Counted from the first letter of the stretch, positions 685 through 61,889 are shown. The stretch: DNA of 64,000 nt from an uncultured Acidobacteriota bacterium (GCA_963722395.1 CAVRLS010000013.1:129896-193895); one strand, 5' to 3'. The notes: generated by a model not told the origin, from the sequence alone. Numbers and translations are program-made.

Positions 685-1545
685 ATGAGTGGCCGTCGTG
701 CCGCGATCGCCGCCGTCTGCGCGGCGGTCGCGGCTTTCTCCTCGGTCGCCCGCTCCGCCCCCGGTCCCGTTCCGGACATTCTCGTCTCGCGGCAGCTGCT
801 CGAGTCGCAGCAGTTGCAGGTGGGCGACCTCGTCGCCCTCTCATCCGACACCTCGGGCTCACACCCTCGTTCGTTCCGTGTCGCCGGCCAGTACGAACCG
901 ACGCCGGATCCGATGCGGCTGGGCGCGGTGCGGCTCGAAGTGCGCATGCACCTGCCCGATGTCCTCGACATGACGGCGCCGTCCGACCCGCTCGAAGCCG
1001 AGTCGGTCGATGCCATCAACGTGGTGCTGGCGAAGAACGACGATGCGCGGGCCACCGCACGCCGCCTCGTCAGCCGCTGTGCCGGGTGCCGTGGCGCAGC
1101 GCACCGGCAGCGACGAGCGCCGTGCGGCGCCGTTCGTCGTGCTCGAACGCTTCCACCTCGCCATTGCCATCGTCACGGTGATCGCAAGCAGCGTGTTCCT
1201 GCTCGCGCTGATGCTGATGCTGGTCGACGAACGGCGGGCTACCGTCGGCATGCTGCGGCTGATCGGCTTCCGCCGCTCGCGCATCCTGCAGCATGTGCTG
1301 CGCGGAAGGCGTGGTCATCGCGCATCGCAGGCGCGCTGTTCGGCGTGGTGCTTTCAGTGCTGATGGAGGGCGGCATCAACCGATTCTTCCAGTGGCGTTA
1401 CGACACCGCGCTGGTGTTCGTCCACATTACGCCTGGCGTCGCGCTGCAGTCGGTGGCGGTTGCCGTGCCGCTCGGCGTGCTCGCCATCTTCGCATCGTCG
1501 TGGACGCTGCTGCGCGGCGAGGGGATCTCGCTGACCCGCCGATGA
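685..1545 (+). CDS. FtsX/MacB-type ABC permease (AttF/AttG-like); internal segment out of frame as assembled
   Basis: N- and C-termini are in the frame of ORF 685..1545 (C-terminal TM helices GALFGVVLSVLMEGG...AVPLGVLAIFASSWTLL). The FtsX core VVLERFHLAIAIVTVIASSVFLLALMLMLVDERRATVGMLRLIGFRRSRILQHVL is only readable in ORF 1010..1363, and AEGVVIA in ORF 1293... At least 3 frame switches. Confidence 0.7.
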   Translation: MSGRRAAIAAVCAAVAAFSSVARSAPGPVPDILVSRQLLESQQLQVGDLVALSSDTSGSHPRSFRVAGQYEPTPDPMRLGAVRLEVRMHLPDVLDMTAPSDPLEAESVDAINVVLAKNDDARATARRLVSRCAGCRGAAHRQRRAPCGAVRRARTLPPRHCHRHGDRKQRVPARADADAGRRTAGYRRHAAADRLPPLAHPAACAARKAWSSRIAGALFGVVLSVLMEGGINRFFQWRYDTALVFVHITPGVALQSVAVAVPLGVLAIFASSWTLLRGEGISLTRR

Positions 1546-2741
1546 GAGTCCTGGCGTTCGCGGTCAGGAGTCTGGTGCGGCAGCCGGGCCGCACGGCGCT
1601 CGGCATCATCGGCATCGCCGCTGTCGGTGCACTGCTGTTCGACATGCTGCTGTTGTCGCGCGGGCTGGTGGTGTCGTTTCGCGACCTGCTCGACAGCGTC
1701 GGCTTCGACGTCCGCGTCACCGCCACCGATTCGCCGCTGCTCGGCGGCATCCGCCTGAAGGACGCGACTGGCGCTGGCGCAGATCTGCGGCACTGCCGGC
1801 GATCGCCGAAGCCGTGCCGCTGCGAACCGCCACCGGTGAGGTCTGGCAGACCGGACGGCCGCGTCATTGGCCTGACGCTGACCGGCATGGACCCGGGCGA
1901 ACGGCGACCGTGGACGATGGTCAGCGGTGCCGACCTCGGCTCGAACCTCGACGCCGCCAGGACCTGGTGGTGAACCAGTCGCGATGGACGAGGTCGGCGG
2001 CGCGATCGGCAGAGACGGTCGACGCCTGCGCAGCGGCTGCGACTCCAGCCGTGCCGCCCTCGCCGCCGCGCACCTTCCGCATCGTCGGCGTGGCGCGAGT
2101 TCCCGTTCGACGACGAGGCGCAGCACACGGCGGCGATGACGCGCTCGGCCCTGCGCGAGGCGTGCGGCGACGATCGCGACGAGGCCGACATGCTGCTGGT
2201 GGCGTCGAGCGAGTGGAGCCGCCGACCGCTGTCGCGGCGATCAGGGCGGCGCGTCCAGACCTCGTGCCGGTCACCAACGAACAGATCGTCGCCCGGATGC
2301 AGGCACAGGGCTTCACCTACTTCCGCCAGATCTCGACGGTGCTTTCGACGATCACGATGCTCTTCGGCTTCCTGCTGATCACCGTGCTGCTCACGGTGTC
2401 CGTGAACCAGCGGCTGGCGGAGATCGCCGCGCTGCGTGCGCTCGGCTTCTCGCGCCGACGCGTCGCACTGGACGTGCTGGCGCAGCGGTGCCATGCTGGT
2501 GGGAGCGGGCGGCGTGCTGGCGCTGCCGCTCGGCTTCGCCCTCTCGCTCTGGCTCGACCGGATTCTCAAGGCGATGCCGGGCATTCCTGCGTCGATGCAC
2601 TTCTTCGTGTTCGAGCCGCGTGCGCTGGTGCTCCACGCCGCGCTGCTCGTGACGACGACGCTGCTGGCGTCGGCCTATCCGATGTGGCTGGTCGCCCGCC
2701 TGCCGATTGCGACCACGCTGCGGAACGAGGTGGTGTCGTGA
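1542..2741 (+). pseudogene. second FtsX/MacB-type ABC permease, frameshift-disrupted as assembled
   Basis: Start MRVLAFAVRSLVRQPGRTALGIIGIAAVGALLFDMLLLSRG (ATGA overlap with the upstream stop). FtsX core TVLSTITMLFGFLLITVLLTVSVNQRLAEIAALRALGFSRRRV is in the frame of ORF 1814..3433. C-terminus ...LALPLGFALSLWLDRILK...YPMWLVARLPIATTLRNEVVS is in ORF 2436..2741. Confidence 0.7.
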
Positions 2742-3433
2742 TGGAGCCGCTCATCGAGGCCCGGTCGCTCGGCAAGACGTTTCCGATGGGCGGCGGGTCC
2801 GGTGCACGCGCTGCGCGACATGTTCGCGTGCAGATTGCGGCCGGCGAGTACCTGACGATTCGTGGACCATCCGGCTGCGGCAAGTCGACGCTGCTGCACA
2901 TCCTCGGCTGCGTCGATACGCCAAGTTCAGCGGCGCGCTGCACTTCGACGGACGCGACGTCAGCGCGCTGCGCTGACCGTGCGCGCAGCGATCTGCGGCT
3001 GCGCAGCATCGGCTTCGTCTTCCAGCGCTTCTTCCTGCTGCCGATGCTGACCGCCGCGGAGAACGTCGACGTGCCGCAGGCGGAGGCCGGCGTGCCGCGC
3101 GCCGACCGGAAGCGCCGCACGGCCGAACTGCTCGACTACGTCGGGCTCGGCCACCGCGCCAATCACCGGCCATCGCAGCTGTCAGGTGGCGAAGCACAGC
3201 GTGTGGCAATCGCGCGTGCCCTGGCCAACCGTCCGCGCCTGCTGCTCGCCGACGAGCCGACGGGTGAACTCGATCGCGCCAACGGCGAACAGATCGCCGA
3301 ACTGCTCGACCGCGTGCAGGCCGACGGCACGACGGTCGTTGTCGTCACCCACGATGTGGCCCTGGCCGAGCGCGCCGCCCGGCGGCTGGTGATGCGCGAC
3401 GGTCTGATCGAACGCGAGGAGCACGCGCCGTGA
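2741..3433 (+). CDS. ABC transporter ATP-binding protein (LolD/MacB/AttE-like); two short compensated out-of-frame stretches
   Basis: Walker A GPSGCGKSTLLHILG, signature LSGGEAQRVAIARAL, Walker B LLLADEPTGELD, VVVVTHD. Near 2795-2825 and 2920-2960 the expected residues (PVHALRD; GALHFDGRDVSAL) are readable only in other frames. Confidence 0.85.
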   Translation: MEPLIEARSLGKTFPMGGGSGARAARHVRVQIAAGEYLTIRGPSGCGKSTLLHILGCVDTPSSAARCTSTDATSARCADRARSDLRLRSIGFVFQRFFLLPMLTAAENVDVPQAEAGVPRADRKRRTAELLDYVGLGHRANHRPSQLSGGEAQRVAIARALANRPRLLLADEPTGELDRANGEQIAELLDRVQADGTTVVVVTHDVALAERAARRLVMRDGLIEREEHAP

Positions 3434-14669: not shown

Positions 14670-17444
14670 ATGACACGTGTGTGGTCGTTCGTGGTTGCGC
14701 TGATGCTGGTCGTTGGGATCGGCCCGGCTCTGGCGCAGCGCACGACAGGTGAGATCTCGGGGAAGGTGATTGATGAATCCGGCGGCACGCTGCCGGGCGT
14801 CACGGTGACGCTGCGAAGCGAAGCCATGCCGGGCGCAACGCCGGTCATCACCTCCGAAACCGGAACCTACCGGTTCCCGCTCCTGCCCGCCGGCAGCTAC
14901 GACGTCGAGTACGTGCTCGAGGGCTTTGCGGGCGCCAAATACGAAGCGATTCGGATCGCGGTTGGACAGACGATCGATCTGAACGTGACCATGAAGGTGA
15001 GCGCGCTCAACGAGACGCTGACCGTGACTGGCGTCGCGCCGGTGGTGAACGTCACCACGTCGGAGGTCAGCACGAATTACAACCGCGAGTGGGTGCAGAG
15101 CGCGCCGGTCCGACGGTTCTCCTACTTCGACCTGATCAACTCGGCGCCGGGCGTCAGCGCGACGTCGAACGTCGGACAGAGCACGTCGGCGCAGTCGCTG
15201 GGCAGCAGCACGAACGAGAACCAGTACCAGATCGACGGCACGGACATCAGCTCGACGCCGTGGCCCAACACCGACGCCATCGAGGAGGTGCAGGTGCTGC
15301 AGCTCGGGTGCGTCGGCCGAGTACGGCAACGTCCAGGGCGCCGTGTTCAACATCGTCACGCGCCAGGGCAGCGAACGTGTTCCACGGCGACGCGAACACC
15401 TACTATCAGAGCGAGCGCGCTGACCGGCTCGCAACACCACCGACGGCGGTCGACAAGGGCTTCCCCTACAACCGCGACACGCTACCGCGACGGCACCGTG
15501 CAGGCGGCTGGTCCCGTTCGTTCCGGACAAGTTCTGGTTCTTCGGCTCGATGCAGTACCAGCGCGACTGGGATTCGCAGCCAGGCGTCGACCCGACGCTG
15601 CCGACCAAGAACGACTCGCGCCGCATGTTCTGCAAGTTCAACTACGACCATCAACGCGAAGCACCGGTTGATGCACGGCTACCACAACGACTACTACTTC
15701 ATTCCGGAGATCGCCGACCAGCTTCACGGCGCCGAGCACGTGTCGTTGAGCCACGGCGACAACCCGACGCCGAACGTCGTCTACACCGGCGTGCTGACGC
15801 GACAAGACGTTCATGGAGGCGCGCTACTCGGGCTTCTGGCTCAATAGCTCGGTCGAACCCGAACGAGGACGGCGTACCGCGCGTGCTGACGCGCTTCGAG
15901 GATCGAGGACACCGGCCTCATCACCGGCGGCATCACGAACTGGACCGAGAACCGCAGCTGGCAGCTGGGGCACGGCAGTCAAGCTGTCGCACGTCGTCGA
16001 CTCGTTCCTCGGCGGCAGCCACGACATCAAGATCGGGCTGCAGTACGGCAGTCACGGCAGCGACAACCTGAACGGTCCGAACGACGTCCTCACCACGTTC
16101 AGCCAGACCGGCCGGCCGACGGCGGGCACGACGCAGTTGCCGTATCACCAGGGCGCGCAGGTCTACTGGAACGGCGTCTACGTCGACGACACCTTCCGTC
16201 TCGGCGCGCGCCGTCGCTCAACCTCGGCGTCCGCTACGACCACAGTCGCGGCATCGTTCCCGTCGTTCCCGCTGCTCGACGCCACCGGCTTCCCGACCGG
16301 CGCGATGTCGGCCGCGAACGACAATGTCTACTCGTGGAACACGTTCTCGCCGCGCGTCGGCCTGAACTAGCAGGTGACCGACGTCCGGCAACACGGTGGT
16401 GAAGGCGCACTACGGCCGCTACTACAAGGCGCTCGAGCCGGGCGAGTTCCGCCGGCGCGGTGCCGTCGATCTCGCCGGCCTTCGAGCTTCGCGCTCGACG
16501 CGGCGGGCGATCGCGTCGAACTTCGTGCAGACGTCGAGCAACGCCAACCTGCGCATCGACCCGGACTTCAAGGCGCCCTACAACGACCAGTTCATGGTGC
16601 AGCTCGAGCAGGAGCTGCGTCGCCGAACCTCGGCCTGCAGGTGAACTACGTGCACAAGCGAGGCGAGGACTACGGCGGCGTGGCAGGACATCGCCGGCAC
16701 CTACGTCCAGGTGCCCTACGTCGACAACGTCGGCATCGACGCCACCGGCCAGACGGTGATGGTCTACCGCCTCACTCAGCAACCCGGCCGACCGCGTCTT
16801 CCTGCAGACGAATCCAGACGGGATGTACATGCGCTACAACGGCGTCACCGTCACGGCTGACCAAGCGCATGTCGAACAACTGGCAGGCGGTGTTCTCGCT
16901 CGTGCTGTCGAAGGCTGAGGGTCGCCTCGGCTCGAGCGCCCGCGCCACGTCGACGACCGACGCAGAGCAGCCAGGCGCGGGCACCTTCGGTCGTGAGCGG
17001 CCGGCCCGAACGACTTCGTCAACACCGACGGCCGGCTCGATCGGCGATCGTCCGGTCGTCGCCAAGCTGCAGCTGATCTACAGGCTCCCGCTGGGGCATC
17101 ATGGTCGTCGGCCAACGTGCAGCACCAGACCGGCCGCTTCTACTCGCGCCAGGTCCGCGTGTCGCGGCCTCGGCTTCCCGGCGCCGCCGACCATCAACAT
17201 GGAAGCGAACACCGGCGACCGCCGCGTGCCGGACGTCAACCTGATCGACTTGCGCGCGCAGAAGGAGTTCGACCCTCGCCGGCTCGCGAGCTTCGGCGCT
17301 GTTCCTCGACGCGCTGAACCTGACCAACAGCGATCAGAGCGAAGGCGTCGGCGTCGTCGCTCGGCACCTCGACGTCGTTCGGCGTCGCCGACGCGCTACA
17401 TCCCGCCGCGCCGCGTGCAGCTCGGCGCCAAGTTCCGCTGGTAG
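14670..17444 (+). pseudogene. TonB-dependent receptor with CarboxypepD_reg N-terminal domain, heavily frameshifted as assembled
   Basis: RBS aggaggggg, then MTRVWSFVVALMLVVGIGPALAQRTTGEISGKVIDESGGTLPGVTVTL... (frame of ORF 14544..15671). Continuation pieces ASAEYGNVQGAVFNIVTRQGS, NVFHGDANTYYQSE, MQYQRDWDSQPGVDPTLPTKNDSRRMF, HRLMHGYHNDYYFIPE, FLGGSHDIKIGLQYGSHGSDN, NANLRIDPDFKAPYNDQFMVQLEQEL and the terminal YIPPRRVQLGAKFRW are scattered over all three frames. The first break is near 15305. Confidence 0.8.
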
Positions 17445-17510
17445 CACCACGCCGCAGGCACCCGGTCAGATGCGGCATCGGAGGTCTGCACTCTTCAGAA
17501 GTCGATTATC

Positions 17511-17528
17511 GGCGGCCTGCGGGCCGCC
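17511..17528 (+). terminator. short GC hairpin downstream of the TonB receptor gene
   Basis: ggcggcc-tgcg-ggccgcc, a perfect 7-bp stem 67 nt after the stop. No U-tract, so function is uncertain. Confidence 0.3.
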
Positions 17529-17543
17529 TCGTGGAGAGTGCTC

Positions 17544-17948
17544 ATGAAGATTGTGCGAATCGGATTGCCGCGTGCTGACGTTGTCGTGAGCGGCGTGCCG
17601 GCGTTCGCCGGTGAACTGGCGGCAGCGCCGCGAAGCGGCCGCCGCCGCGGCAAGGACGCCGACACGCAGGAGACGCCCGGTCGGGACGGCGACCGAAGCC
17701 GATGGTGCTGGCCGGCGCCGCGCTGTTCGCCGGCGGCATGGCGTCGGGCTGTCTACGGCTTCATCAACAACAAGAACGGCGAGCTACTCGGAGTTCGGCG
17801 AGGCTTCGGCGAGCAACGAGAAGCTCGGGCGCCGCCGGACTGGGCGCGGCGTTCGCGGGCGGCACGATGATGTTCCTCGGCACGCCACGGCAAGCGCATG
17901 CCGTCGGTCACCGTCGGCGCCGTGGCGTCGGCGTCGCGAAGAAGGTGA
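17544..17948 (+). pseudogene. small hypothetical exported/Gly-rich protein, frameshifted as assembled
   Basis: MKIVRIGLPRADVVVSGVPAFAG... Then, in other frames: MVLAGAALFAGGMASG / VYGFINNKNGE / YSEFGEASASNEKLG / AAGLGAAFAGGTMMFLG / RMPSVTVGAVASASRRR-stop (17946-17948), 1 nt before the qhpA start. The reconstruction is tentative. Confidence 0.3.
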
Positions 17949-17949
17949 C

Positions 17950-19700
17950 ATGGTGAGATGGCGCGCCAGTCGCTGTCATGGATTCCGCGCCGTTCTGCTC
18001 GCCGGCATCGGCGCGGCCGCTGCGGCGACGTCGGCGCCGCGCAGGCGCACTGCGGCCGATGCCGGCATCCCGATCGAGAGCGAGCTCGTCAAGCAGCAAG
18101 TGCGGCGACTGCCACACGCCCGACGACCAGAAGCGGATGACCCGCATCTCGTATCGGCGCGCCACCCCGGAGAACTGGGAGCGGACGATCAAGCGGATGA
18201 TCACCATCAACAAGGCGGCGCTCGAGCGCCGCCGACGCCCGCGCGATCGTCAAGTACCTCGTCCGACCACAACGGCCTTGCGCCCGAGGAAGCGCGGCCG
18301 GTCGCGTTCGAGGCCGAACGCCGCCTGATCGACGTGCACCTACGACGGCGACAAGGACACGGCCACCGCTGCTGCTCGGGGTGCCACTCGATCGGCCGCG
18401 TCATGAGCGAGCGGCGGACGAAGGAGGAGTGGGAGGCTGCTGATCGCGATGCATCGCGGCTACTACCCGCTGGTCGACAACCAGCCGATCAACTGAACGG
18501 GCCAGGGCTTCCGCCGGTCGCGCGCGCCGTGCCGTCGCCGAGGACGCCGCCGACAAGCGCCATCCGATGGACACGGCGATCGAGCACCTCGCCAAGGCGT
18601 TCCCGCTGATCACCCCGGAGTGGACGGAGTGGACGCGCCGCGTGGCAGCCGCCAACCTCGGCGGCACGTGGGCGCTCACCGGCTAACGATCCCGGGCAAG
18701 GGTCCGGTCTACGGTGAGATGACCGGTCACGGCCGATGCCGGCCGCCGGACACGTTCGTCACCGACGACGACGCTACACGGTCGGCGAAGACCGGCGAGA
18801 CCGCGTCGCGCACCGGCAAGGCGCTCGTCTACACCGGCTTCCAGTGGCGCGGCCGCGGCGCCGACGCGGCGCAAGCCGGACGAGCCGTGGCGTGAGGTGA
18901 TGTTCGTCGAGCGCGACCGCAGCGAGATGTGGGGCCGCTGGTTCACCGGCGCCTACGACGAGATCGGCATCGACGTGAAGCTGGTGAGGCTCGGCGGCGA
19001 TCGCCGATGGTCCTCGGCACCAGCCGGCTCGCGCTGAAGACGCGGCGCCACGGCCAGCGTCACGATCTTCGGCGCGAACCTGCCGGCGACGCTCACGCCG
19101 GCGACGTCAGCCTCGGCGCCGGCATCACCGTCACGCAGCGTCGCCGTCGGCGCAACGACGCGGTGACCGTCGACGGTGACGGTGGCCGCCGACGCGACGG
19201 CCGGGGCCGCGCGACCTCGTCGTCGCCGGCGTGGTGAAGCCCTCGGCGCTGGTCGTCTACGACAAGGTCGACGGCGTGCGCGTGCTGCCGCGGGCCGGCC
19301 TGGCGCGCGTCGGCGGCGCGGTCTTCCCGAAGGGGTACCAGCAGTTCGAGGCGATGGCCTTCAACAACGGTCCCGACGGCAAGCCGAACACCAGCGACGA
19401 CTGGCACCTCGGCGCTGGTCGACGCGACGTGGAGTGTCGAGGAGTACACGGCGACGTTCGACGACGACGACCTGAAGTTCGTCGGCGCGATCGACGCGAG
19501 ACCGGCCTCTTCACGCCGAACGTCGACGGCCCGAACCCGGACACGCAGCGGCAATCGCAACAACATCGGTGACGTCTGTGGATCGTCGCCGACTACACGC
19601 CGGAACGGTGCGCGCCGAGCCGATCCGCGCGCGCGCGCAGCTCGTGCGTCGCACCTCCGGTCTACATGCGCTGGATCGGCATCGGAGGCCGGTACAATGA
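17950..19700 (+). pseudogene. qhpA: quinohemoprotein amine dehydrogenase alpha subunit (di-haem cytochrome c), frameshifted as assembled
   Basis: MVRWRASRCHGFRAVLLAGIGAAAAA (signal). First haem motif CGDCHTPDDQKRMTRISYRRATPENWERTIKRMITINKAALE. Then ARAIVKYL.SDHNGLAPEEARPVAFEAERRLID. Second haem motif CSGCHSIGRVMSERRTKEEWE. Distal pieces VYDKVDGVRVLPRAGLARVGGAVFPKGYQQFEAMAFNNGPDGKPNTSDDWHLG and GLFTPNVDGPNPD..NRNNIGDVWIVADYTPE. All three frames are used. Confidence 0.8.
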
Positions 19701-21166
19701 CACGTCTTGGCGCTCGGGAACATCACCGCTTCGAAGCCGCCGGGAAGCCGTTCGTCTATCTCGTGCCGAGCGCCGCGATCTTCGCGCTCGACGCCGGCCG
19801 CCGACGCGGTGCTGCAGGCGCTCGGGTCCGGGCCGCAGTCCCGCGACGAGCTCGCTGACGACTGTCTACCGGCCGATCTTCGGCCGACGAGGAGCTGGAC
19901 GCCACGGTCGACGAGCTGGTCACGGTGCGGGCGATCGGCCCGATCGCGCCGCCGCAGCCGATGCCGAAGATCCTGCCGCTGACAGCCGTTCCCGCTCGAC
20001 GACGATGGTGCTCAACGTGACCAACCAGTGCAACCTCGCGCTGCACCTACTGCTACGAGTACGGCGAGGACAAGATCGTCGACACCGAGAACGGCAAGAA
20101 GCCGAAGTTCATGACCGAGGAGACGGCGCGCGGCAGAGCGTCGACTTCATGCTCAAGGAGTCGGGCGACAACCAGGTGCGCCCACCTCACGTTCTTCGGC
20201 GGCGAGACGCTGATGAACTTCCCGGTGCTGAAGCAGACCATCGCCTACGCGCGGCAGCGGGCGGCGGAGGTCGGCAAGGAGGTCGACTTCAGCCTGACGA
20301 CCAACGCGACGCTGCTGCAAGCCGGAGATCATCGAGTTCCTCGTCGAGAACGACGTCGGCGTCACCATCTCGATCGACGGTCCGCCGGAGATGCAGGACA
20401 AGTTCCGCGTCTTCCACAACGGCACCGGCAGCTACGACATCGTGGCGCCGAAGATCAAGGAGCTGCTGCAGCAGCACCGCAACCGCCCGATCGGCGCGCG
20501 CGTCACGCTGACCGTCGGCAACCTCGACGTCACGCGCATCTACAGGCACCTGACCGAGGAGTTCGGCTTCCGCGAAGTCGGCTTCGCGCCGGTCACCACC
20601 GTCGTCGAAGCGCGACTACGCGCATCGACGAGCAGGGCTTCGACGACGATGCTCGACGCAGTTCCGCGCGCTGGCCGAGGAGTTCCTGGATGCGGCGGTC
20701 GAAGGGCCGTCATCACGGCTTCTCGAACGTCAAGGAGACGCTCGAGGAGATTCACAAGGGGATGAGCAAGGCGTATCCCGTGCGGCGCCGGCACTCGGGC
20801 TGATGGGCGTGTCCACCGACGGCGACGTGGCGCTGTGCCACCGCTTCGCCGGCTCCGACGACGCACAAGCTCGGCACCGTGCGCGACGGCATCGACCGCG
20901 CGGCGCAGGCGGCGTTCCTCGACACGCATCACGTCGCCGACAAGACCGACTGCAGCACCTGCTGGGCGCGCCCGGTCTGCTCGGGCGGCTGCTACCACGA
21001 GGCGCACACGCGCTACGGCGACACGACCAAGGCCAACCTGCACTACTGCGACTGGATCCGCGGCTGGACCGACGTCTGCCTGCAGATCTACGGCGAGCTC
21101 GCGGAGCGCAACCCCGCGTTCCTCGCGCAGTTCGATCGCGAGCCGACGGCCGAGAAGGTCAGCTAG
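19697..21166 (+). pseudogene. qhpD: radical SAM/SPASM peptide-crosslinking maturase, frameshifted as assembled
   Basis: MTRLGAREHHRFEAAGKPFVYLVPSAAIFALD. Radical-SAM site VLNVTNQCNLA.CTYCYEYGE. HLTFFGGETLMNFPVLKQTIAYAR, FSLTTNATLL, ISIDGPPEMQDKFRVFHNGTGSYD. SPASM end CGAG..MGVSTDGDVALCHRF and DCSTCWARPVCSGGCYHEAH..HYCDWIRGW. Pieces lie in ORFs 19666.., 20111.., 20391.., 20803.., 20879..21166. Confidence 0.85.
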
Positions 21167-21179
21167 CACCGAGGAGATC

Positions 21180-21548
21180 ATGAGACATCTGAAGGCAATC
21201 AATCAGAAGGCGGCTCGCATCGAGCAGTACGTCGAAGCGCAGCAGGAGGCGATTGCCGCCGCGGGCGACGGACGTCGTCGCGCTGCAGCGCGGCGGCCGC
21301 CGCAGCAGCCGGCCGGCCGCACATCCCGCTCGGCTGCTCGCTGGTCTTCTCGCCCGGCTGGGAAGTCGGATCGCACCGGCGGCACGGCCGGTCTCTGTCA
21401 GCCGGTCGAGCGCGACCTGTTCGACTGCCACATCGGCTGCTACTGGCCGGCGCAGGTGCCGGACCAGCTCAATCACGCCCCCGACTGGACCACCAAGTGC
21501 GCGGCCGCCCAGAAGGACTGGCGCAAGATCGACCTCGTCTTCCCGTAA
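21180..21548 (+). CDS. qhpC: quinohemoprotein amine dehydrogenase gamma-subunit precursor (CTQ/thioether peptide); internal compensated frame excursion
   Basis: RBS gaggag. Leader MRHLKAINQKAARIEQYVEAQQEAIAAAG. The core reads ..GCSLVFSPGWEV (other frame, ~21330-21366), then RTGGTAGLCQPVERDLFDCHIGCYWPAQVPDQLNHAPDWTTKCAAAQKDWRKIDLVFP. Cys/Glu/Asp/Trp spacing matches QHNDH gamma (see finding). Confidence 0.85.
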   Translation: MRHLKAINQKAARIEQYVEAQQEAIAAAGDGRRRAAARRPPQQPAGRTSRSAARWSSRPAGKSDRTGGTAGLCQPVERDLFDCHIGCYWPAQVPDQLNHAPDWTTKCAAAQKDWRKIDLVFP

Positions 21549-21568
21549 GGTCAGGAGCCGGATCAGCC

Positions 21569-22745
21569 ATGAGAGTTTCGTTCGGTTTCACACGCTGGCC
21601 GTCGCGCTCGCGCGTGTCCGCGCTGCTGGCGCCGCTCGGCGCCCAGGGCGAAGGCCAGGCGCCGGTGTCGGCCGGCAACGGCACGCTGTACGTCGGCATC
21701 GTTCCCGGACCACTTCTGGATGATCGACGAGGCCACCGCCACGATCACCGGGAAGATCCCGTTCACGTCCGGCATGCCCCGGCGCACGTCGCTGTCGCGC
21801 GATCGCACCCGCTTCTACACCGTCGAGGCGCAGCATGGAGAAGGTCGAGATCATCGACATCGCGTCGCGCAAGACGATCGACACGTTCACGCTGCAGCGA
21901 GGGCGAACAGCAAGGTCCGCATCAAGAGCGCTCGAGCCCGATCCGACGCACCGCTTCGTGATGATGGTCACCCGCACCGCGCACCGAAGCACATCGACCG
22001 CTGGGAGATCGGGCCGTCGGCGCTCGTGCAGTACGACCTCGCGCACGCACAAGATCGCGCGCACGCATCCCGTGGCCGAACGGCGAGGAGCGCGAGAACG
22101 CCAACGATCCAGTTCTCGCCCGACGGCAAGCTGATGTACCTGTTCAGCGAGCAGGACGTCCTGATCTACGAGACCACCGACGTTCACGCAGGTCGACAAG
22201 TGGGAGCTCTCGAAGCCGGTCGAGGAGGGCTTCGGCGCGCTTCGAGTTCGGTCAGATCGACGCCGTCAACGACGAGCCCGGCTTCTACACCGCGCATCTT
22301 CACACGTGCAGGATCCGGTGCAGAACCGCCGCATGATGGGCATCGGCCGCGTCAACCTGGCGGCCAAGACGGTCGACTTCTACACCCTCGGTCCGGCGAC
22401 GCAGGTCGGGCTTCACGATGGCGCCCGAGCCGCAAGGTGGCCTACGGCCTGATGTCAGCGAGATCGGCCACTACGAGTTCTGGAAGTTCGACCTCGAGGG
22501 ACGAGCGGGTCGCCGCGCGCGCCGAGTTCGAGGGCCGCCCGCGCATGTCGCTCGAAGACCAGCTCGAACGGCAAGGTGCTCTACATCTACAACGCCGGCG
22601 AGACGATCGACCTCTACGACGCCGACGACCTTCAAGTTCATGAAGACGATCGACCTCGACGGCGACATGACCACCGACATGTTCGTCGTTCCCGGTCCGG
22701 CGTCCGGCACGAGCCGACCACCTCGCGCCGAAGGTCGCACGATGA
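21569..22745 (+). pseudogene. qhpB: quinohemoprotein amine dehydrogenase beta subunit (beta-propeller), frameshifted as assembled
   Basis: RBS aggag, then MRVSF... signal. Propeller-like pieces across frames: GNGTLYVGIVPGP, MIDEATATITGKIPFTSGMPRRTSLSRDRTRFYTVEA, MEKVEIIDIASRKTIDTFTL, IQFSPDGKLMYLFSEQDVLIYETT, HYEFWKFDLE, VLYIYNAGETIDLYDAD, FKFMKTIDLDGDMTTDMFVVPGP. The exact stop is uncertain. Confidence 0.7.
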
Positions 22746-49389: not shown

Positions 49390-50624
49390 ATGCCCACTCA
49401 GCCGCAGACCCGCGTTCTCCACATCGACATCACCGGCCACGACCATCCTGGCGTCACGCACTCGCTGACGGCGATTCTCGCGCGTCGCGAACGTCCGCAT
49501 CCTCGACATCGGCCAGGCGGTCATTCACGACGCGCTGGCGCTCGGCCTGCTGGTCGAGCTGACCGACGAGATGAAGTCGTCGACGCTGCTCACCGACCTG
49601 CTGCTCGAGGCGCATCGGCTCGGCGTGCAGATTCGCTTCACGGCGGTCACCGACGACGAGTACGACGCGCTGGGTCCAGGCGCAGAGCAAGGGCCGCTAC
49701 GTCGTCTCGGTGCTCGGACCGGCGCTGACCGCGGCGCACCTCGAGGCGGTCAGCGGCGTCATTGCCGCGGCAGGACCTGAACATCGACCGCATCGACCGC
49801 CTGTCGGGCCGCGCGCCGCTCGACGAGCACGGCCTCGGGCGCATCTGCGTCGAGTTCTCCACGTCGGGCGTGATCCGCAGCGACGACGACATGCGCACGG
49901 CGCTGATCGGCGCTGACGCAGGACTTCGACGTCGACATCGCGTTTCAGCACGACACCGTCTACCGCCGCAATCGCCGCCTGGTCGCCTTCGACATGGACT
50001 CCACGCTGATCCAGACCGAGGTGATCGACGAACTGGCCCGGCTGGCCGGCGTCGGCGACCAGGTGTCGCGCGCATCACCGAGGCGGCCATGCGCGGCGAG
50101 CTCGACTTCCAGGCCAGCTTCCGCCGCCGCGTCGCGCTGCTCAAGGGGTTGCCCGCGTCGGCGCTGCAGCACGGTCGTCGACGACGGCGCCACTGATGGA
50201 CGGCGCCGAACGGCTGATCGCCACGCTGCGCCGCCTCGGCTACAAGACCGCCATCCTCTCCGGCGGCTTCACCTTCATGGGCCGCGAACTGCAGCGCCGG
50301 CTCGGCATCGACTACCTCCACGCCAACGAGCTCGACATCGTCGACGGCGTGGTCACCGGCGAGGTGCGCGGCGAGATCGTCGACGGCGAGCGCAAGGCGC
50401 ACTACCTGGCGGAGATCGCGCCGCGCCGAAGGGCTGAGCATGGAGCAGGTGATTGCGGTCGGCGACGGCGCCAACGACCTGCCGATGCTGCAGCCTGGCC
50501 GGGCTCGGCATCGCGTTCCACGCCAAGCCGGTCGTGCGCCAGAGCGCCCGCCAGGCCATCTCCGACGCTGGGGCTCGACGGCATTCTCTACCTGCTCGGC
50601 GTCCGCGACCGCGACACGCTGTAA
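49390..50624 (+). pseudogene. serB: phosphoserine phosphatase SerB (ACT-like N-domains + HAD domain), frameshifted as assembled
   Basis: MPTQPQTRVLHIDITGHDHPGVTHSLTAILA. Pieces in other frames: NVRILDIGQAVIHDALALGLLVEL, MKSSTLLTDLLLEAHRLGVQIRF, LNIDRIDRLSG. HAD motif I LVAFDMDSTLIQTEVIDELA, ITEAAMRGELDFQASFRRRVALLKGL, KTAILSGGFTFMG, VIAVGDGANDLPML, GIAFHAKPVV. Confidence 0.85.
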
Positions 50625-52427: not shown

Positions 52428-54589
52428 AACACACCCCTTGCTTCCGCCCAGTGGCACGCGTCCAGATGATCGGCCGAGCCGGTGCGCGGTGCCAGCGCTG
52501 GCGACTGCTCGACACAAGTCTGGCGCTGCGCGTCGGTCAATTCCAGCGCGAACGTCTGGCAGCGCGTCCTGAACCGGCAGCCCGACGGCGGGTTGGCCGG
52601 GCTTGGCAGGTCTCCCTTCAAGCACGATGCGAACCCGCTGCCGTTCCTTGCGCGGATCCGGCAGCGGGATCGCCGACAGCAGCGCCTGCGTGTACGGATG
52701 CGCAGGGGCGTCGAACACCTCGTCCACCGACGCCGGTCTCGATGATGCGGCCGAGGTACATCACCGCGATGCGATCGGCGATGTGGCGCACGACGGCGAG
52801 ATCGTGCGCGACGAAGAGATACGACAGGCCGAGCTGCGCCCGCAGCCGTTCGAGCAGGTTGATGACGCCGGCCCGCACCGACACGTCGAGCGCCGACACC
52901 GGCTCGTCGAGCACCAGCAGCTTCGGCTCGAGCGCCAGCGCCCGCGCAATGCCGACCCGCTGACGCTGCCCGCCCGAGAACGCCTGCGGATAGCGGTTCA
53001 CGTGTTCCGGCTGCAGGCCGACGAGCTGCAGCAGCTCGCGGACGCGGCGCGAGACATCCTCGTCGGCCACGCCGTGCGCACGCAGCGGCTCGGCCAGGAT
53101 GTCGCCAATCGGCAGGCGCGGGTCGAGCGACGCCATCGGGTCCTGAAAGACCACCTGCAGATCGCGCCGGATGGCGAAGCGATCGGCGCGGGTCATCGAC
53201 GCCGTGTCCTTGCCGAGCACCTGGATGCTGCCCGAGAGCGGCTTCTCCAGGTTCAGGATCTCGATGATCGTTGTCGTCTTGCCGCAGCCCGACTCGCCGA
53301 CCAGTCCCAGCGTTTCACCTTCGCGGATGTCGAAGCTGACGCCGTCCACCGCACGCACCTCGCCGACCTTGCGGCGCAGCACCACCCCCTTCATCAGCGG
53401 GTAGGCCTTCACCAGGTCGCGCACAGCCAGCACCGTGGCGCGTGTGTCGACCCCACCCAGTGGGCGGGCCGAGGCAGGTGGAGCAGGCGCCACGAAGATG
53501 TCGCGGCTGCTCAATCCGCGCCGCTCGATGTCGTCGCGGAAATGACACGAGGCCCGATGACCATCAGGCCTCGGATCGTTGGTCATTGGTCGTTCGTCGC
53601 TGGTCGCGTCAGTACCTAGCTGCGGGCCATCAGGTCCGCCGTCGCGGATGATCGGCAGCAGCGCCGGCTCGACCTCTGCACAGATGTCCTGTCGCATCGG
53701 ACACCGCGGACGGAACGGGCAGCCGGACGGCAGCGCCACCATCGACGGCGGCGTGCCTTCGATCGGCGTCAGCGGCTGGTGCTCGCCGCCATCGGCGCGC
53801 GGGATCGAGCCGAGCAGGCCGAGCGTGTACGGCATCCGCGGCGTGTAGAACACATCGTCGACCGTGCCGGTCTCGACGATGGTGCCGGCGTACATCACGG
53901 CCACGCGGTCGGCGACGCCGGCGATGACGCCGAGGTCGTGGGTGATCAGCACGATGGCCGCGCCGGTCACCGTGCGCGCCGTCTGCAGCACGTCGAGAAT
54001 CTGCGCCTGGATGGTGACGTCGAGCGCCGTCGTCGGCTCGTCGGCAATGATCAGCGCCGGGTCGTTGGCGATGGCCATCGCAATCATCACGCGCTGACGC
54101 ATGCCGCCGGAGAACTCGTGCGGGAACGCCGTTGCCCGCTGCTGCGCGTTCGGGATGCCGACCAGCTCGAGCAACTCGACGGCGCGGTCCTTCGCCGCCG
54201 CCTTGCTCACCTGCTCGTGCACCAGCACCGCCTCGGCGATCTGATCGCCGACGGTGTAGACCGGCGTCAGCGCCGACAGCGGGTCCTGGAACATCATCGC
54301 GATCTGCTTGCCGCGGATCGCCGACAGCTCCGCGTCCGACCGCCCGATCAGCTCCTGACCGTTGAACCGCGACCGATCCGCTCACCTGCGCGTGGCCGGG
54401 CAGCAGGTTCATGATGGCCAGCGACGAGACCGACTTGCCCGAGCCCGATTCGCCGACGATGCCGAGCAGTTCGCCGGCGCGCACGTCGTAGCTGACGCCG
54501 CGCACCGCGCGGACGAGTCCCGACGTCGCTGCGGAACGTCACCGACAGGTTCGGTCGACCGACAGCGAGGCGGCTTCCTGCCGCGGCAT
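52424..54589 (-). pseudogene. fused double ATPase (OppD-OppF in one polypeptide) of the peptide ABC transporter, frameshifted at both ends as assembled
   Basis: NBD1: [55 protein letters not shown]2: [45 protein letters not shown]. Tail [12 protein letters not shown] and SGCRFRTRC are in two other frames. Central 559 codons are intact (ORF 52618..54297). Confidence 0.85.
53572..53606. repeat. degenerate heptamer array (TTGGTCA/TTGGTCG...), inverted orientation, inside the ATPase CDS
   Basis: cggatcg ttggtca ttggtcg ttcgtcg ctggtcg. Translated in frame on the minus strand as ..[13 protein letters not shown].. Confidence 0.75.
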
Positions 54590-55538
54590 CAGGCGACGCG
54601 CCCTGGCGTGTTCGGGTCGAACGCGTCGCGCAGGCCGTCGCCGACGAGGTTGATCGCCAGCACCAGCACCACGAGCAGACCGGCCGGGAAGTAGAACTCC
54701 CACGGGAAGGTGAGCGCGGCGTCCGGCGTAGTCGCCGATCAGCGTGCCGAGCGACACGTCGGGCGGCTGCACGCCGAAGCCGAAGAACGACAGCCCCACC
54801 TCCGCGAGGATGAGCGAGCTGACGTTGATGGTGGCGTCGATGATGAGCAGCGACGCCATGTTCGGCAGGATGTGGCGGAAGATGATGCGCCAGCCGGGCA
54901 CGCCCATGAACCGCGCCGCCTGCACGAACTCGCGCTCGCGCAGCGACAGCGTCATGCCGCGGACGATGCGCGCGGTGACCATCCACTGGAAGGCGGCGAG
55001 CAGCACGACGAAGATGAGCCACGTGCTGGCCGCGGAACGACGGCGACAGGATGGCGATGATGAGGAACGCCGGCAGCACCATCAGCAGGTCGATGAGCGT
55101 CGAGCAGCGCCGTGTTCACGACGCCGCCGAAGTAGCCGGCGAACGCGCCGACGATGGCCGCCAGCGCCGTGGCCATCAGCGCACCGAGCAGCCCGATGAC
55201 CAGCGACTTCTGCATGCCGCGCATCGTCAGCGCGAACACGTCGAACCCGTTCTGCGTCGTGCCGAACCAGTGCGAGCCGCCCGGCGGCTCGAGGAAGGCG
55301 TTGAAGTCGAGCTCGGTTGTACTGCCAGGGACTGACGATACGGACTGAGGTACGCCAGCGCGAACAGCAGGATGACGATCGCGAGGCCGAACAGCGCGAG
55401 CCGCTGGCGGAGGAAGCGGCGCCGACCAGTCGCAGGCGTGAGGCTGCCGCCTCTTCGTACGGGCTGTGGGCCAGAACCCGAAAGAGTGCCGGTCTGCAGG
55501 CCCGGCGCAGGTCCGTCGTCTGGCACGGCGGTGGCCAT
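54589..55538 (-). pseudogene. peptide ABC transporter permease (OppC/DppC-like), frameshifted as assembled
   Basis: MATAVPDDGP...[114 protein letters not shown]. Pieces lie in several frames. TGATG overlaps at both ends. Confidence 0.8.
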
Positions 55539-56524
55539 CAGACGCGGACCCGCGGGTCGAGCGCCGCGTAGGCGAGGTCGGACAGGAACCCGGCGATGAG
55601 CACCAGCACGCCGACGAAGAGCGTGACGCCGGCCACCGAGTTCACGTCGTTCTTGGTGACCGAGTTCGACGAAGAACTCGCCCATGCCGTGCCAGCCGAA
55701 CAGCCGCTCGGTGAACGTGGCGCCGACGAAGAGCAGCGCGAACTCGTAGGCGAAGAAGGTGGCCATCGGGATGAGCGCCGTGCGCAGCCCGTGCTTGATG
55801 AGCGCGCGCGACCGGCTCAGCCCCTTGGCGCGCGCGGTGCGCAGGAAGTCGCTGCCGAGCACGTCGAGCATGGCGTTGCGCTGGTAGCGGCCGTAGAACG
55901 CCACGGCAATCACGATGAGGACGAGCGAGGGCAGCACCAGGTGCGCCAGCCGGTTCAACACGCCGGCCATGGTCCACGGGTCGAGCCCGGGCGTCATCTC
56001 GCCGGTGGTGTAGAGGAGTCGCCGGTGAAGCCGAGCAGGTTGTTGATGCCGATGCCGGCGTTCTTGAAGAGGACGCCGAGCACGACGGCGGGTATGGACA
56101 GCGTGACGAACGAGAAGACGGTGAGCAGGCGATCGGAGAGCTGGTACTGCTTCACCGCGCCGTAGGCACCGGCGGCAACGCCGAGGAACGTGCCGACGAG
56201 TGCGCCCATCAGCACCAGCCGCAGGCTGACCCACATGCGCCGACCGATCTCGTCGTTCACCGGCTGGTTGTCGACGGTGCGCCCGAGATTGCCGCGCAGC
56301 AGATCGCCGGCCCAGCGCCGGTAGCGCGTCAGCACCGGCACCTTGTCGTTCATGTTCAGCTGATCGAGCGTGGCGTCCACCACCGCGGCAGGCGGCGGCG
56401 GATTGCGCCCTTCGTATCGCGCCCGCGGGTTCAGCTGGGTGGCGGCGAGGACGTACGCCGCCGAGGTCGCGATGACGACGAGGCAGACGAGGTAGAGCAG
56501 ACGTCGAAGGAGGAAGCCGGCCAT
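55538..56524 (-). pseudogene. peptide ABC transporter permease (OppB/DppB-like), frameshifted as assembled
   Basis: MAGFLLRRLLYLVCLVVIATSAAYVLA... (ORF 55994..56524), then LNRLAHLVLPSLVLIVIAVAFYGRYQRNAMLDVLGSDFLRTARAKGLSRSRALIKHGLRTALIPMATFFAYEFALLFVGATFTERLFGWHGMGEFFV (frame of ORF 55227..56234). The C-terminus is in a third frame. Confidence 0.8.
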
Positions 56525-59910: not shown

Positions 59911-59922
59911 GCCGCCGCGGTG

Positions 59923-61889
59923 CTACTGCGGGCGCACCGCGTAGGCCACCAGTTCGGTCGTCACCCCGCTTCCCACGGCAGTGACGATGAACTGGCGTCC
60001 ACCAGCGAGGTAGGTCATCGGTGCAGCGGCGGGGCCCAGCGGCAGCGTCTTCTCCCAGACCAGTTCGCCGCTTCGTTTGTCGAAGGCCCGGATCATCTGT
60101 GGTTCCGGTGCGAGGTTGGTGAGCGGTCTGCCACCAATCGGAAGTGCGTTGCCTCGCCCGAGGTTGCCGAGGAACTGGGTCACGAACAGCAGCGACGGTG
60201 TGGCCAGCAGGCTGCTGCGGCGGCCGTTGCCAAGGGGACCGAGCCCCAGTCCAGCCAACAGCGGGTGGTGACGCGGACCATCGCCAATCGGCACCTGCCA
60301 CACGATGCGCCCCTCGTTCAGGTCGTAGGCGGTGAGACGGCTGTAGGGCGGCTTGTAGAGCGGGATGCCATCGAGTGAGGGCAGTGCGCCAGCGGCACTG
60401 CGCCGGTAACGCATGTTGCCGCCGTTGGTGTCGCCCTTGTCCAGGCCGACGATAGCCGGCGAGGTGAGCGATGGCACGTACAGAAAGCCGGCGGCCGGAT
60501 CGACGGCCGCACCGCCCCAGTCCGCACCCCCGACATCGCCAGGCATCTGGATGTTGCCGCGTTCGGTGGGCGGCGTGAACAGCGGACCGCGGTCCCACTG
60601 CTTCAACGTGTCGAGGGCGAGCGTCCGCAACTCCGGCGTGAATGCCACGATGTCGTCATCCGAGAACCCCTGTCTGTCGAATGGCGGTGGTTGCGTCGGG
60701 AACGGCTGTGTCCGCGACGTCTTCTCGCCGGGCACGGTTGACTGCGGCACGGGCCTTTCCTCGATCGGCCACAGCGGCTCGCCGGTCGTCCGATCGAACA
60801 CGTAGACGAAGCCCTGCTTGCTGACCTGTGCGACCGCCTTGATGCGTCGGCCGTTGCGCACGACCTCGACGAGGTTGGGCGCAGCGGGGAGGTCGTAGTC
60901 CCACAGCCCGTGGTGCACGGCCTGGAAGTGCCAGACGCGCTTGCCCGTCGTGGCGTCGAGGCAGACGAGGCTCTCGGCGAACAGGTTGTTGCCAGGGCGA
61001 TGGCCGCCGTAGAAGTCGTTGGTCGGCGTGCCGAACGGCAGGTAGACGTAGCCAGTCTCCTCGTCCACCGTCATCATCGACCACACGTTCGTGTTGCCGG
61101 TGTACTCGGCGGAGCCGTCCTCCCACGTGTCGTAGCCGAACTCGCCCTCTGCGGGAATCGAGTGGAATGTCCACAGCTTCTCGCCCTGTTCGGGCGTCGA
61201 AACCGATGATGTCGCCGCGCGGCTGTTCCTTCAGCAGCGGCCGATCGACGATGTTCGCGCCGGAGATGATGACGTTGCTCACCACGACCGGCGCGGAGTT
61301 CATCGCGTAGTTCTCGAGCGGCTTCACGAAGGCGAGTCCGTCGGCGACGCGCACGCGGCCGCCGTCGCCGAAGTCGGGATCGGGCTTGCCGGTCTCGGCA
61401 TCGAGCGACACCAGCTGCGCGTCGTGCGTGCCGGTGATGATGCGCTTGCGGTTACCGTCGGTCCAGTAGGCGGACCCACGATGGGTGAAGCCGAGATTTG
61501 TCGGCCGGCCGAGCTTCCACGTCTCCGGGATCGCAGGTCCAGATTGTGCGGCCGGCGATCGGGTCGAGGGCGGCGACGATGCCGAGCGACGTCGTGGTGT
61601 AGAGCACGCCGTTCACCAGCAGCGGCGTGTCCTGGTAACCGTATGGACGTGCCGGGTTGGTCTTGACGATCTCGTTGTCGGGCGTACTCCAGCGCCACGC
61701 CACCTCGAGCCGGCTGACGTTCGCCCGCGTGATCTGGTTCGCCGACGAGTACTTCGAACTCGCTGCGTCGCTCGCGTAGTGGCGCCACTCGGTGGCGGCG
61801 ACCTCGGACGGCTGGGGGCGCTGCGTGAGGGCGACGACAGCCGCGGTTGCCGTCAGCAGGGCGGCAAGCGTGAGAGGGGCACGTTGCAT
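59923..61889 (-). pseudogene. PQQ-dependent dehydrogenase (8-bladed quinoprotein, glucose/alcohol dehydrogenase family), a few frame breaks as assembled
   Basis: MQRAPLTLAALLTATAAVVALT signal, EWRHYASDAASSKYSSANQITRANVSRLEVAWRW, DTPLLVNGVLYTTT (ORF 61452..62108). THDAQLVSLDAETGKPDPDFGDGG (ORF 60656..61411). Intact 387-aa C-terminal part in ORF 59923..61086 (NVWSMMTVDEETGYVYLPFGTPTNDFYGGHRPGNNLF..., GGADWGG). Breaks near 61090-61210 and 61500-61560. Confidence 0.8.

Follow-up and report, generated by a model that had tools for sequence, protein, structure and literature searches.

Dense, sharply bounded frame breaks in a soil acidobacterial contig: probable local consensus errors rather than gene decay

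The question raised by this locus is why recognisable protein sequence hops from frame to frame in some genes, while others close by are read through without any break. The window analyzed here is a stretch of 64,000 nucleotides, and the contig that holds it, 1.0 Mb long, belongs to a Vicinamibacterales metagenome-assembled genome from a soil bacterium. An earlier note on this DNA had described the breaks as extremely clustered, and had preferred a poor local consensus to ancient pseudogenes as their cause. Frame breaks were located by a 7-state codon-usage Viterbi path together with a frameshift-aware protein-to-DNA alignment against intact orthologues from 10-12 relatives, the closest of which are about 84-88% identical in DNA and represent a strain other than that of the window. 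The two approaches agree that the clustering is real, with about 176 frame breaks gathered in a few sharply bounded patches, and they recover all the break positions previously listed, those at 61190/61533 by the Viterbi path only. As judged from the sequence and its comparison with relatives, and in line with the preference of that note, these breaks are in all likelihood local consensus errors of the assembly, and neither mutations nor gene decay.

Broken patches and intact stretches

The first patch (A, 1075..2971, + strand) holds 17 breaks, namely 13 one-base insertions, 2 two-base insertions and 2 one-base deletions, spread over two permease genes (FtsX permease 1, 685-1545; FtsX/MacB permease 2, 1542-2735) and an ABC ATPase gene (2741-3433). 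Permease 1 is clean over its initial 390 nt and the ATPase over its final 460 nt, as deduced from the intact orthologues of 285, 396 and 228 aa in L069 and L070 and from the Viterbi hops. An isolated one-base insertion follows at 8548 (- strand), in an epoxide-hydrolase-like gene (8101-9376), where the orthologues of L002 and L069 call for a single event and the Viterbi path hops at 8549/8550.

The largest patch (B, 15306..24092, + strand) carries 131 breaks (100 one-base insertions, 16 two-base insertions and 15 one-base deletions), evenly dense at a mean of one event per 67 nt, or 7.4 per 500 nt; the Viterbi path makes about 95 + strand hops between 15304 and 24085. All its genes lie on the + strand, starting with that of a TonB-type outer-membrane protein (14553-17441), whose breaks begin at 15306, and a small gene (about 17500-17990). 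These are followed by the genes of QhpA (to 19693), the radical-SAM protein QhpD (about 19698-21166), QhpC (to 21545), QhpB (to about 22700) and the ABC exporter QhpF (to 24479), in which the final break is found at 24092. The main content of the patch is thus a predicted qhp operon, identified through the Pfam domains of the L063-L066 orthologues, the full-length alignment of the repaired window proteins and a Peptidase_S8 domain in the window itself; QhpB is identified by position and homology only. The reference qhp operon, that of the quinohemoprotein amine dehydrogenase of Paracoccus denitrificans and Pseudomonas putida, shares with it QhpA (Dehyd-heme_bind and Qn_am_d domains), QhpD (radical SAM), QhpC (QH-AmDH_gamma), QhpB, the exporter QhpF, the subtilase QhpE and a flavoprotein like QhpG, whereas the window copy is part of an acidobacterial island of accessory genes, which also encodes a TonB-type outer-membrane protein. 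In any case, the operon is the mere content of the patch and not the finding. The L063-L066 orthologues of its five broken qhp genes are intact (566, 482, 119, 378 and 575 aa), and a MAFFT alignment of QhpF reveals that each inserted base is absent in 9/9 relatives.

Further downstream, a one-base insertion at 48970 (- strand), placed at 48969-48972 by comparison with L021, L023 and L046, interrupts a cupin-like gene (about 48333-49139) whose Pfam Cupin matches are weak and under the curated cut-offs. Patch C (49486..50564, + strand; 9 one-base insertions and 1 two-base insertion, 10 breaks) falls in a gene (about 49390-50621) for a SerB-type phosphoserine phosphatase, with ACT and HAD domains found by Pfam on the repaired protein, and its break positions are identical with L020, L021, L022, L023 or L046 as the reference. 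On the - strand, two one-base insertions (52622..52731, from six relatives) affect the 3' end of a fused oppD/F ATPase gene, and patch D (54373..56019) adds 12 breaks (9 one-base insertions, 1 two-base insertion and 2 one-base deletions) over the 5' end of oppD/F, oppC and oppB, in agreement with the Viterbi hops. Between its two broken ends oppD/F is clean for 1.6 kb (52732-54372), and the adjacent gene of the substrate-binding protein (SBP, 50748-52394) shows no coding-region event, as the earlier note had maintained; oligo_HPY and SBP_bac_5 are the respective domains. Finally, two +1-direction hops at 61190/61533 (- strand), seen in the Viterbi path only, divide a PQQ-dependent dehydrogenase gene (59924-61872), whose three pieces, once joined, match Pfam PF01011 over 595/595 profile positions (E = 7e-186). 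Repeated Viterbi hops mark 1077-2973, 49164-50746, 52428-56017 and 61191-61534 as well.

On the other hand, the 24.9 kb from 24093 to 48969 contain no frame break in about 18-19 genes, among them qhpE/S8 (24475-25176) and those of a 296-aa protein, a cytochrome c, sucA and sucB, which bears out the intact run of 24 kb already noticed. Its 14 testable genes show no coding-region event against the relatives, and from 24.6 to 48.9 kb the Viterbi path changes state at gene boundaries only. The coding sequence of the region 24.5-48.9 kb totals 22 kb and should hold 65 events at the window-wide rate, but none was found (P about 1e-28), so that automated detection gives no break density like that of the patches in this region. 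Control genes (qhpE/S8, the 296-aa protein, cytochrome c, sucA, sucB, an NHL protein, SBP, a 459-aa protein, RNase II and others) are likewise free of events within their coding regions, with a few isolated calls upstream of starts, at alignment ends. Comparison of the relatives with each other, for the five qhp genes of four genomes, also gave no event in 20 gene-by-genome comparisons, the orthologous loci being intact throughout. The transitions are steps: the event rate is 0 over 6.7 kb, rises to a uniform 1.5% from 15306 and returns to 0 for 24.9 kb past 24092. Patch edges fall inside the TonB-type, QhpF, FtsX1, ABC and oppDF genes, sparing 390-750 nt of these genes, and the affected loci, five in number, are unrelated to one another. 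Scanning the window against Rfam and for tRNAs gave no match.

Event spectrum and position of the extra bases

The frameshift-aware alignment yields 137 one-base insertions, 20 two-base insertions and 19 one-base deletions, that is, 157 insertions versus 19 deletions (89%, about 8:1), all of 1-2 nt. Between 15 and 35 shifts per patch gene are needed to follow the relatives' orthologues. The reading frame cycles +1, +1, +1 and usually returns only after three insertions; the compensating pairs reported before are the exception. The net-zero length change formerly ascribed to several genes holds for the small gene (0) and roughly for FtsX1 (+3 nt), but most genes are longer (QhpA by 32 nt, the TonB-type protein by 29, QhpD and QhpB by 20 each and QhpF by 13). 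The claim of no extra stops was nearly right, as over 8.8 kb the repaired frames contain just one or two, such as TAG for TAC near 16370; this scarcity is uninformative, because at such a high GC content a +1 insertion leads into a frame where only one codon in 131 is a stop. Every shifted segment fully keeps its codon-usage signal, as well as its conserved motifs.

This spectrum bears directly on whether the amine-dehydrogenase operon, Opp, SerB and the others are real pseudogenes that gained indels once selection was lost. As in the decay of pseudogenes of Ca. Burkholderia leaf-nodule symbionts and others, several frame-disrupting indels coexist with a still recognisable orthology (PMC6054270); the genes are partly accessory, with the qhp island missing from L002, and the one or two in-frame stops would also fit. 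However, bacterial pseudogenes show an insertion to deletion ratio of about 0.76 (insertion share 0.43), indel sizes following a power law that reaches tens of nt, and some 4.6 indels each, with 3-10 per gene in natural sets (PMC6054270), whereas the window has its 8:1 excess of 1-2 nt insertions at 15-35 per gene. The events are private to the contig, and their insertion share departs from 0.43 with P = 1e-37. The sparing of several hundred nucleotides of the same genes by the patch edges, the codon-usage signal preserved in every shifted segment and the involvement of SerB, which is no obvious accessory gene, also speak against decay.

The substitutions that accompany the breaks point in the same direction. 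Window-private non-synonymous changes are 3-5 times commoner in the patch than in the flanks, which could favour decay, and at the second codon positions invariant in relatives window-private changes amount to 3.4% in the patch versus 0.6% outside. This excess is at most 2.8%, against an indel rate of 1.5%, which gives no more than about 2 substitutions per indel, whereas bacterial mutation-accumulation data show about 10. In its spectrum, transversions exceed transitions and G<->C changes are frequent, without GC-to-AT bias, while in the flanking genes transitions prevail and GC-to-AT changes stand at 51:7. The substitutions are thus too few per indel and too unnatural in spectrum for real decay. 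The excess is not relied on here as a sign of decay: it is explained in part by short undetected out-of-frame stretches, e.g. 22953-22962, and by the generally higher divergence of the island, whose intact qhpE likewise reaches no more than about 80% identity with its nearest orthologues. Taken with the indels, real pseudogenes appear very improbable.

The position of the extra bases was then considered for the 74 well-placed insertions, which distribute among codon slots as 31/27/16, many of them in codons invariant in every relative. Only 14 duplicate a neighbour, or 23 when ambiguous cases are included (19-31%), when about 51% would be expected, and this rules against homopolymer slippage, natural or technical; the insertions avoid homopolymers, an association which the earlier note had proposed to check, and this is a further point against decay. 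The inserted base is nearly always unlike both neighbours, and 53% of the insertions that do not extend a run create a CpG versus 25-28% expected. No sequence motif or methylation site common to the insertions was detected within 6 nt on either side (<=0.07 bit everywhere). A link to GC content was dismissed, given that two clean regions, 38-41 kb and 57-60 kb, equal the patches in GC content (0.70), and so was a link to gene or island boundaries, patch B lying inside the island (12.7-25.3 kb) yet matching no edge of island or gene.

A variant of the artefact explanation would be that mixed reads of co-occurring related strains or species were used in polishing, producing a hybrid consensus with extra bases. 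The strain-variable nature of the qhp island (relative L002 lacks the region corresponding to 12.7-25.3 kb), an inserted base that differs from both neighbours as if two alleles had both been emitted, and the raised level of window-private substitutions in the patch are all consistent with it. Nevertheless, the insertions show no tie to polymorphic wobble sites: 16 of the 74 separate the first base of a codon from the second, and many interrupt codons that are the same in all relatives, so the emission of both alleles of a SNP at wobble sites was rejected as a general cause. Moreover, sucA and sucB, whose conservation among relatives is no lower and which cross-mapping could reach just as easily, are clean, and the patch edges (15306/24092) do not match those of the island (about 12.7/25.3 kb). 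This variant is therefore regarded as rather unlikely, though the least improbable of the alternatives.

Other genomes and the origin of the patches

Similar patterns are found in the qhp operons of other genomes. Thus, L073 (1.37-Mb contig_5187) shows 60 insertions versus 9 deletions in a sharply bounded 7-kb patch, L074 (4.23-Mb contig_9645) shows 36 versus 4 in a patch extending into unrelated genes, and L071 (contig_31) shows 5 versus 1. From their contig_N names and lengths of 1-4 Mb, we infer that the three are long-read assemblies, and this recurrence carries an ascertainment bias, as the loci were found through a search for QhpF fragments. The qhp operons of L009 and L011, also contig_N-named, are clean, and therefore assemblies of this type are not always affected. 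The relatives' orthologues in short-read assemblies are all intact, with full-length gene calls in L063-L066; a pattern seen in unrelated contigs of 1-4 Mb and in no short-read assembly further weakens the case for pseudogenes. Among 5.8 billion proteins, no near-identical intact QhpD from the same population was found (best match of the repaired full-length protein, 81%), nor a near-identical intact QhpF (76-78% at best for a repaired segment of 180 aa, over most of the query), and for this reason the repaired QhpD and QhpF sequences stay predicted. An exact-protein look-up retrieved a 2.2-kb Logan contig of run ERR12037361 encoding a protein identical to the 296-aa protein of the window; by gene spacing, the end of this contig corresponds to about position 24354, outside patch B.

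The number of event positions shared between genomes is about double the chance expectation (e.g. 15 versus 7.8 expected, or 4 versus 0.84), which may reflect a placement bias of the alignment method. If the extra bases were truly in the DNA, this weak coincidence would instead be a site preference, and one would have to admit either a localised insertion-only mutation in kilobase tracts of several soil Acidobacteria or a decoding tolerant of dense +1 sites, a scenario to which we give even less weight than to decay. Fainter still is the prospect of recoding, in which real insertions would be bypassed by repeated +1 ribosomal frameshifting or by base removal at the RNA level. It could draw on that same coincidence, and on the perfect coding signal and conserved motifs of the shifted segments, and it shares with programmed +1 frameshifting (prfB, Euplotes genes) one extra base to skip for a conserved protein. 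Known programmed shifts, however, need a defined shifty motif that is conserved in orthologues, whereas the sites in the window have no common motif, the extra bases are missing from the orthologues, most sites are not shared between genomes and the patches disregard gene boundaries. Furthermore, more than 130 frameshifts in one operon would leave no yield at any known frameshifting efficiency.

Consensus error thus remains by far the preferred reading. Indel errors that fragment genes are known from long-read (nanopore or PacBio) assemblies and MAGs, where IDEEL-type tests measure them; Watson & Warr 2019 reportedly described them too. When soil metagenomes are assembled from nanopore reads, no more than 57-70% of the predicted proteins are full length, and kilobase regions without read support have been reported (PMC13087279). 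The window resembles these cases in that indels of non-3n length split conserved genes that are whole in the short-read assemblies of relatives; such errors are frequent in soil long-read MAGs, and kilobase regions with poor read support have been described. It differs in the error class, since long-read consensus errors are mainly associated with homopolymers and deletions outnumber insertions in nanopore assemblies (PMC12007338), whereas the window has 89% insertions, mostly outside homopolymers, at a density of up to 1.5% in a sharply bounded 8.8-kb patch. With 157 insertions versus 19 deletions, few of them run-extending, this class is unusual for a nanopore or HiFi consensus. The most likely pathway implies that contig stretches of 0.1-9 kb would carry uncorrected noise of single-molecule reads, mainly one spurious extra base per 70-230 nt, while the remainder is accurate. 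Such patches would arise where very few reads, or badly aligned ones, underlay the consensus, or where polishing left out a step. For the largest one, low coverage of a strain-variable island would be a plausible reason, given that one close relative has no qhp island.

Consequences for annotation and for the organism

The practical value of these data is that of a quality-control warning. Automatic annotation of the contig will give about 15 pseudogenes or dozens of gene fragments, and protein databases already hold many QhpF-like fragments of 108-315 aa, from contigs of up to several Mb. The combination of kilobase patches and insertion-only errors outside homopolymers, recurrent in several public contigs, may serve as a signature for automatic flagging. 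As for the bacterium itself, if the breaks are artefacts the qhp operon, the Opp transporter, SerB, the FtsX/ABC exporter and the PQQ dehydrogenase would be expected intact, which on sequence grounds is very likely the case, and the breaks probably hold no biology worth pursuing. It would be a mistake, in metabolic or pangenome work, to read them as the loss of amine oxidation, peptide uptake or serine synthesis in the lineage.

Distribution of the frame breaks

Frame changes along the window were first located with a Viterbi path through six coding frames and a non-coding state, using codon log-odds for which 12 long window ORFs served as the training set. The + strand has about 95 changes within 15304-24085, with repeated ones also in 1077-2973, 49164-50746, 52428-56017 and 61191-61534, and from 24.6 to 48.9 kb the path changes frame at gene boundaries only. 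BLASTN comparison with 19 relatives gave 15-45 gaps per kb of a length not divisible by three in 15-24 kb, and a few per kb, mostly intergenic, elsewhere. Single events were called by a purpose-written local protein-to-DNA aligner that allows insertions and deletions of 1 and 2 nt, with the orthologous proteins of relatives as queries. It detected 17 events in 1075-2971 (FtsX1, FtsX/MacB and ABC ATPase), one at 8548, 131 in 15306-24092 (TonB-type outer-membrane protein, a small gene and QhpA/D/C/B/F, hereafter patch B), one at 48970, 10 in 49486-50564 (SerB-type) and 14 at 52622/52731 and 54373-56019 (oppDF/C/B). Two more, at 61190 and 61533, come from the Viterbi path only, and joining the pieces around them yields a full-length match to Pfam PF01011 (E = 7e-186). 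All the places listed in the earlier note are thus recovered.

The same aligner found no event inside the coding regions of control genes (qhpE, the 296-aa protein, cytochrome c, sucA, sucB, the NHL protein, the SBP adjoining oppDF, the 459-aa protein, RNase II and others), apart from which there are a few isolated calls at alignment ends that lie upstream of start codons, and none in 20 gene-by-genome comparisons of the relatives with each other. The 22 kb of coding DNA within 24.5-48.9 kb would carry 65 events at the mean rate and carries none (P ~1e-28). This confirms the clustering as real and shows it to be extreme, and the clean stretch of about 24 kb, as well as the intact sucA and the intact SBP gene beside the broken oppDF, stand as described before. 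Events are spaced evenly inside patch B, averaging 7.4 per 500 nt (variance 3.7) with a mean gap of 67 nt; its segments 16200-16600 and 23250-23500 are predicted to contain 5 and 6 extra bases. The event rate behaves as a step function: zero for 6.7 kb, 1.5% from 15306 onwards, and zero again for the 24.9 kb past 24092. The patch edges fall within genes: the first 750 nt of the TonB-type gene, the last 390 nt of QhpF, the first 390 nt of FtsX1, the last 460 nt of the ABC ATPase and a 1.6-kb middle stretch of oppDF are all clean.

Nature of the extra bases

The 176 events comprise 137 one-base insertions, 20 two-base insertions and 19 one-base deletions in the window. With mostly insertions, the frame steps +1, +1, +1 and is back after three, which resembles a hopping between frames. 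The breaks are mainly unpaired (157 insertions vs 19 deletions), and the compensating pairs reported earlier as many are the exception. Net-zero length applies only to FtsX1 (+3) and the small gene (0), whereas QhpA (+32 nt), the TonB-type protein (+29), QhpD (+20), QhpB (+20) and QhpF (+13) are lengthened. Shifted segments do show little stop signal, as had been noted, but this is uninformative and needs no explanation, since in the intact genes here the frame entered after a +1 insertion meets a stop once per 131 codons.

For 74 events, the extra base was placed without the reading frame, by deleting each candidate in turn and counting nucleotide matches to all relatives. These insertions occupy all three codon slots (31/27/16), often within codons identical across all relatives (TAC GCC ATC to tacgAccatc; AGC GAC to aCgcgac), and in a MAFFT alignment each extra base of QhpF is present in the window and in none of 9/9 relatives. 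The inserted bases (G 24, C 24, A 13, T 4) are near local composition, and no sequence motif was detected at any position within 6 nt on either side. Homopolymers had been raised as a possible setting of the indels; however, run extension is rarer than chance, as only 14 of the 74 insertions, or 23 with ambiguous cases, duplicate a neighbour, compared to about 51% expected (P = 1e-8 to 4e-4). Moreover, 27 of the 51 unambiguous non-run insertions create a CpG (25-28% expected, P = 1.5e-4). Homopolymer avoidance together with a twofold CpG excess is thus the signature of the patch B insertions.

Relatives, the qhp island and the question of decay

The window has a GC content of 62-71%, and its nearest public relatives are metagenome-assembled genomes of Vicinamibacterales (Acidobacteriota) with about 77-89% DNA identity; tRNA and Rfam scans of the window returned no tRNA and no Rfam family. 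Some syntenic loci with 77-89% DNA identity to the window carry the labels 'Bifidobacterium breve HRS-HS13-bin-114' (L007, L018 and L069, CALQBJ02...) or 'uncultured Bifidobacterium sp. binchicken_co276_76' (L010 and L014, CAYLTD01...), a taxonomy that looks wrong.

In orthologous loci of relatives the genes are unbroken and the extra bases are confined to the window; in short-read assemblies (contig names k141_, NODE_ or scaffold), QhpA/D/C/B/F are all full-length (566/482/119/378/575 aa). A near-identical intact copy from the same population was not found in the protein collection with either repaired QhpD or a repaired QhpF segment. Recoding, as a reading of these breaks, has a negligible probability, and genuine pseudogenes are very improbable. 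Curated real bacterial pseudogenes show 396 deletions and 300 insertions (ratio of 0.76), with power-law indel sizes and about 4.6 indels per pseudogene (PMC6054270), whereas the 157 insertions and 19 deletions of the window are all of 1-2 nt, at 15-35 per gene, and the insertion share differs from the natural one with P = 1e-37.

Decay would also bring many neutral substitutions. Where all relatives agree, changes private to the window reach 4.2/3.4/5.3% at codon positions 1/2/3 in patch B and 1.4/0.6/5.4% in its flanks. The position-2 excess of <=2.8%, or at most about two substitutions per indel, serves as an upper bound only, because short unrecognised out-of-frame stretches and a greater general divergence of the island both contribute to it; intact qhpE also has just ~80% identity to its closest orthologues. 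The excess has an unnatural spectrum, with more transversions than transitions, frequent G<->C changes and no GC-to-AT bias, whereas the flanks show more transitions than transversions and a GC-to-AT count of 51:7 (P = 0.005 and 4e-6).

In this lineage the qhp cluster has the character of an accessory island, since one relative (L002, JAYTXA010000014) entirely lacks the region corresponding to ~12.7-25.3 kb of the window (12700-25340), with the qhpG-like flavoprotein gene, the TonB-type outer-membrane protein gene, qhpADCBF and qhpE. Beside qhpE, relatives have two to three tandem copies of a gene pair, one gene coding for a cytochrome c of 470 aa and the other for a protein of 296 aa. In the window (25269-25466 and 25544-28027) there is a single pair, together with a 75-nt remnant of the second 296-aa gene (25269-25343) and the spacer (25343-25466). 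The Logan assembly of run ERR12037361 includes a contig with an identical 296-aa protein and the same 368-nt spacing, which makes it probable that the single copy is genuine rather than the product of an assembly collapse.

Recurrence and likely origin of the patches

When the repaired QhpF segment of 180 aa was used as a protein query, most hits were truncated pieces of ABC transporters (108-315 aa), and many of these lie on contigs of 0.1-4.4 Mb. Genes split by frameshifts in assemblies of this type therefore seem to be a common source of fragments in the large protein collection. Four fragment-bearing loci were fetched. Their qhp operons show 5 insertions vs 1 deletion in L071 (ena:ERZ25039504:contig_31, 400-7300), 60 vs 9 in L073 (ERZ25039600:contig_5187, 1900-8700) and 36 vs 4 in L074 (ERZ25039490:contig_9645, 1800-14800); in the fourth, L072, gene calls are also split. 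In the first three loci G or C again makes up most of the inserted bases, and most contexts listed show no run extension. Frame hops end sharply at ~8.7 kb in L073, with the following 5 kb clean, and run on into unrelated genes in L074. The contig_N names and sizes of 1-4 Mb suggest that these three are long-read assemblies. As the loci were found by searching for fragments, that qhp is involved reflects ascertainment; the qhp genes are clean in L009 and L011, which also have contig_N names, and in short-read assemblies. Event positions are shared between genomes about twice as often as by chance, which may reflect context dependence or a placement bias of the aligner. The loci nevertheless establish insertion-type noise, arranged in kilobase patches, as a recurrent property of some public megabase contigs.

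Insertions outside homopolymers may be akin to the non-cognate ('stick') insertions of PacBio continuous long reads. In nanopore soil assemblies the share of predicted proteins that reach full length is just 57-70%, and stretches of kilobase size that no read supports are a recognised class of error (PMC13087279), while typical long-read consensus errors are homopolymer-linked, with deletions dominating in nanopore assemblies (PMC12007338). The window agrees with this picture in general but differs in detail, its breaks being insertion-dominated and for the most part not linked to homopolymers.

The private insertions, their 157:19 spectrum and the recurrence in L071, L073 and L074 support the artefact interpretation of the earlier note, whose core is confirmed and whose details are corrected; judged from sequence comparison, the breaks are very probably an artefact rather than biology. 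In the patches the consensus would derive from single-molecule reads that were too sparse or poorly aligned, or the patches would have been missed by polishing, and spurious extra bases would survive for this reason. Low strain-specific coverage is plausible for the largest patch, which lies inside an accessory island, although its edges do not match those of the island. A pile-up of mixed strains is a possible variant of the artefact, but it leaves unexplained both the insertions inside invariant codons and the clean, highly conserved sucA and sucB. As an artefact, the breaks would be of low biological interest, and their chief value would be to call for caution with this contig and comparable ones.
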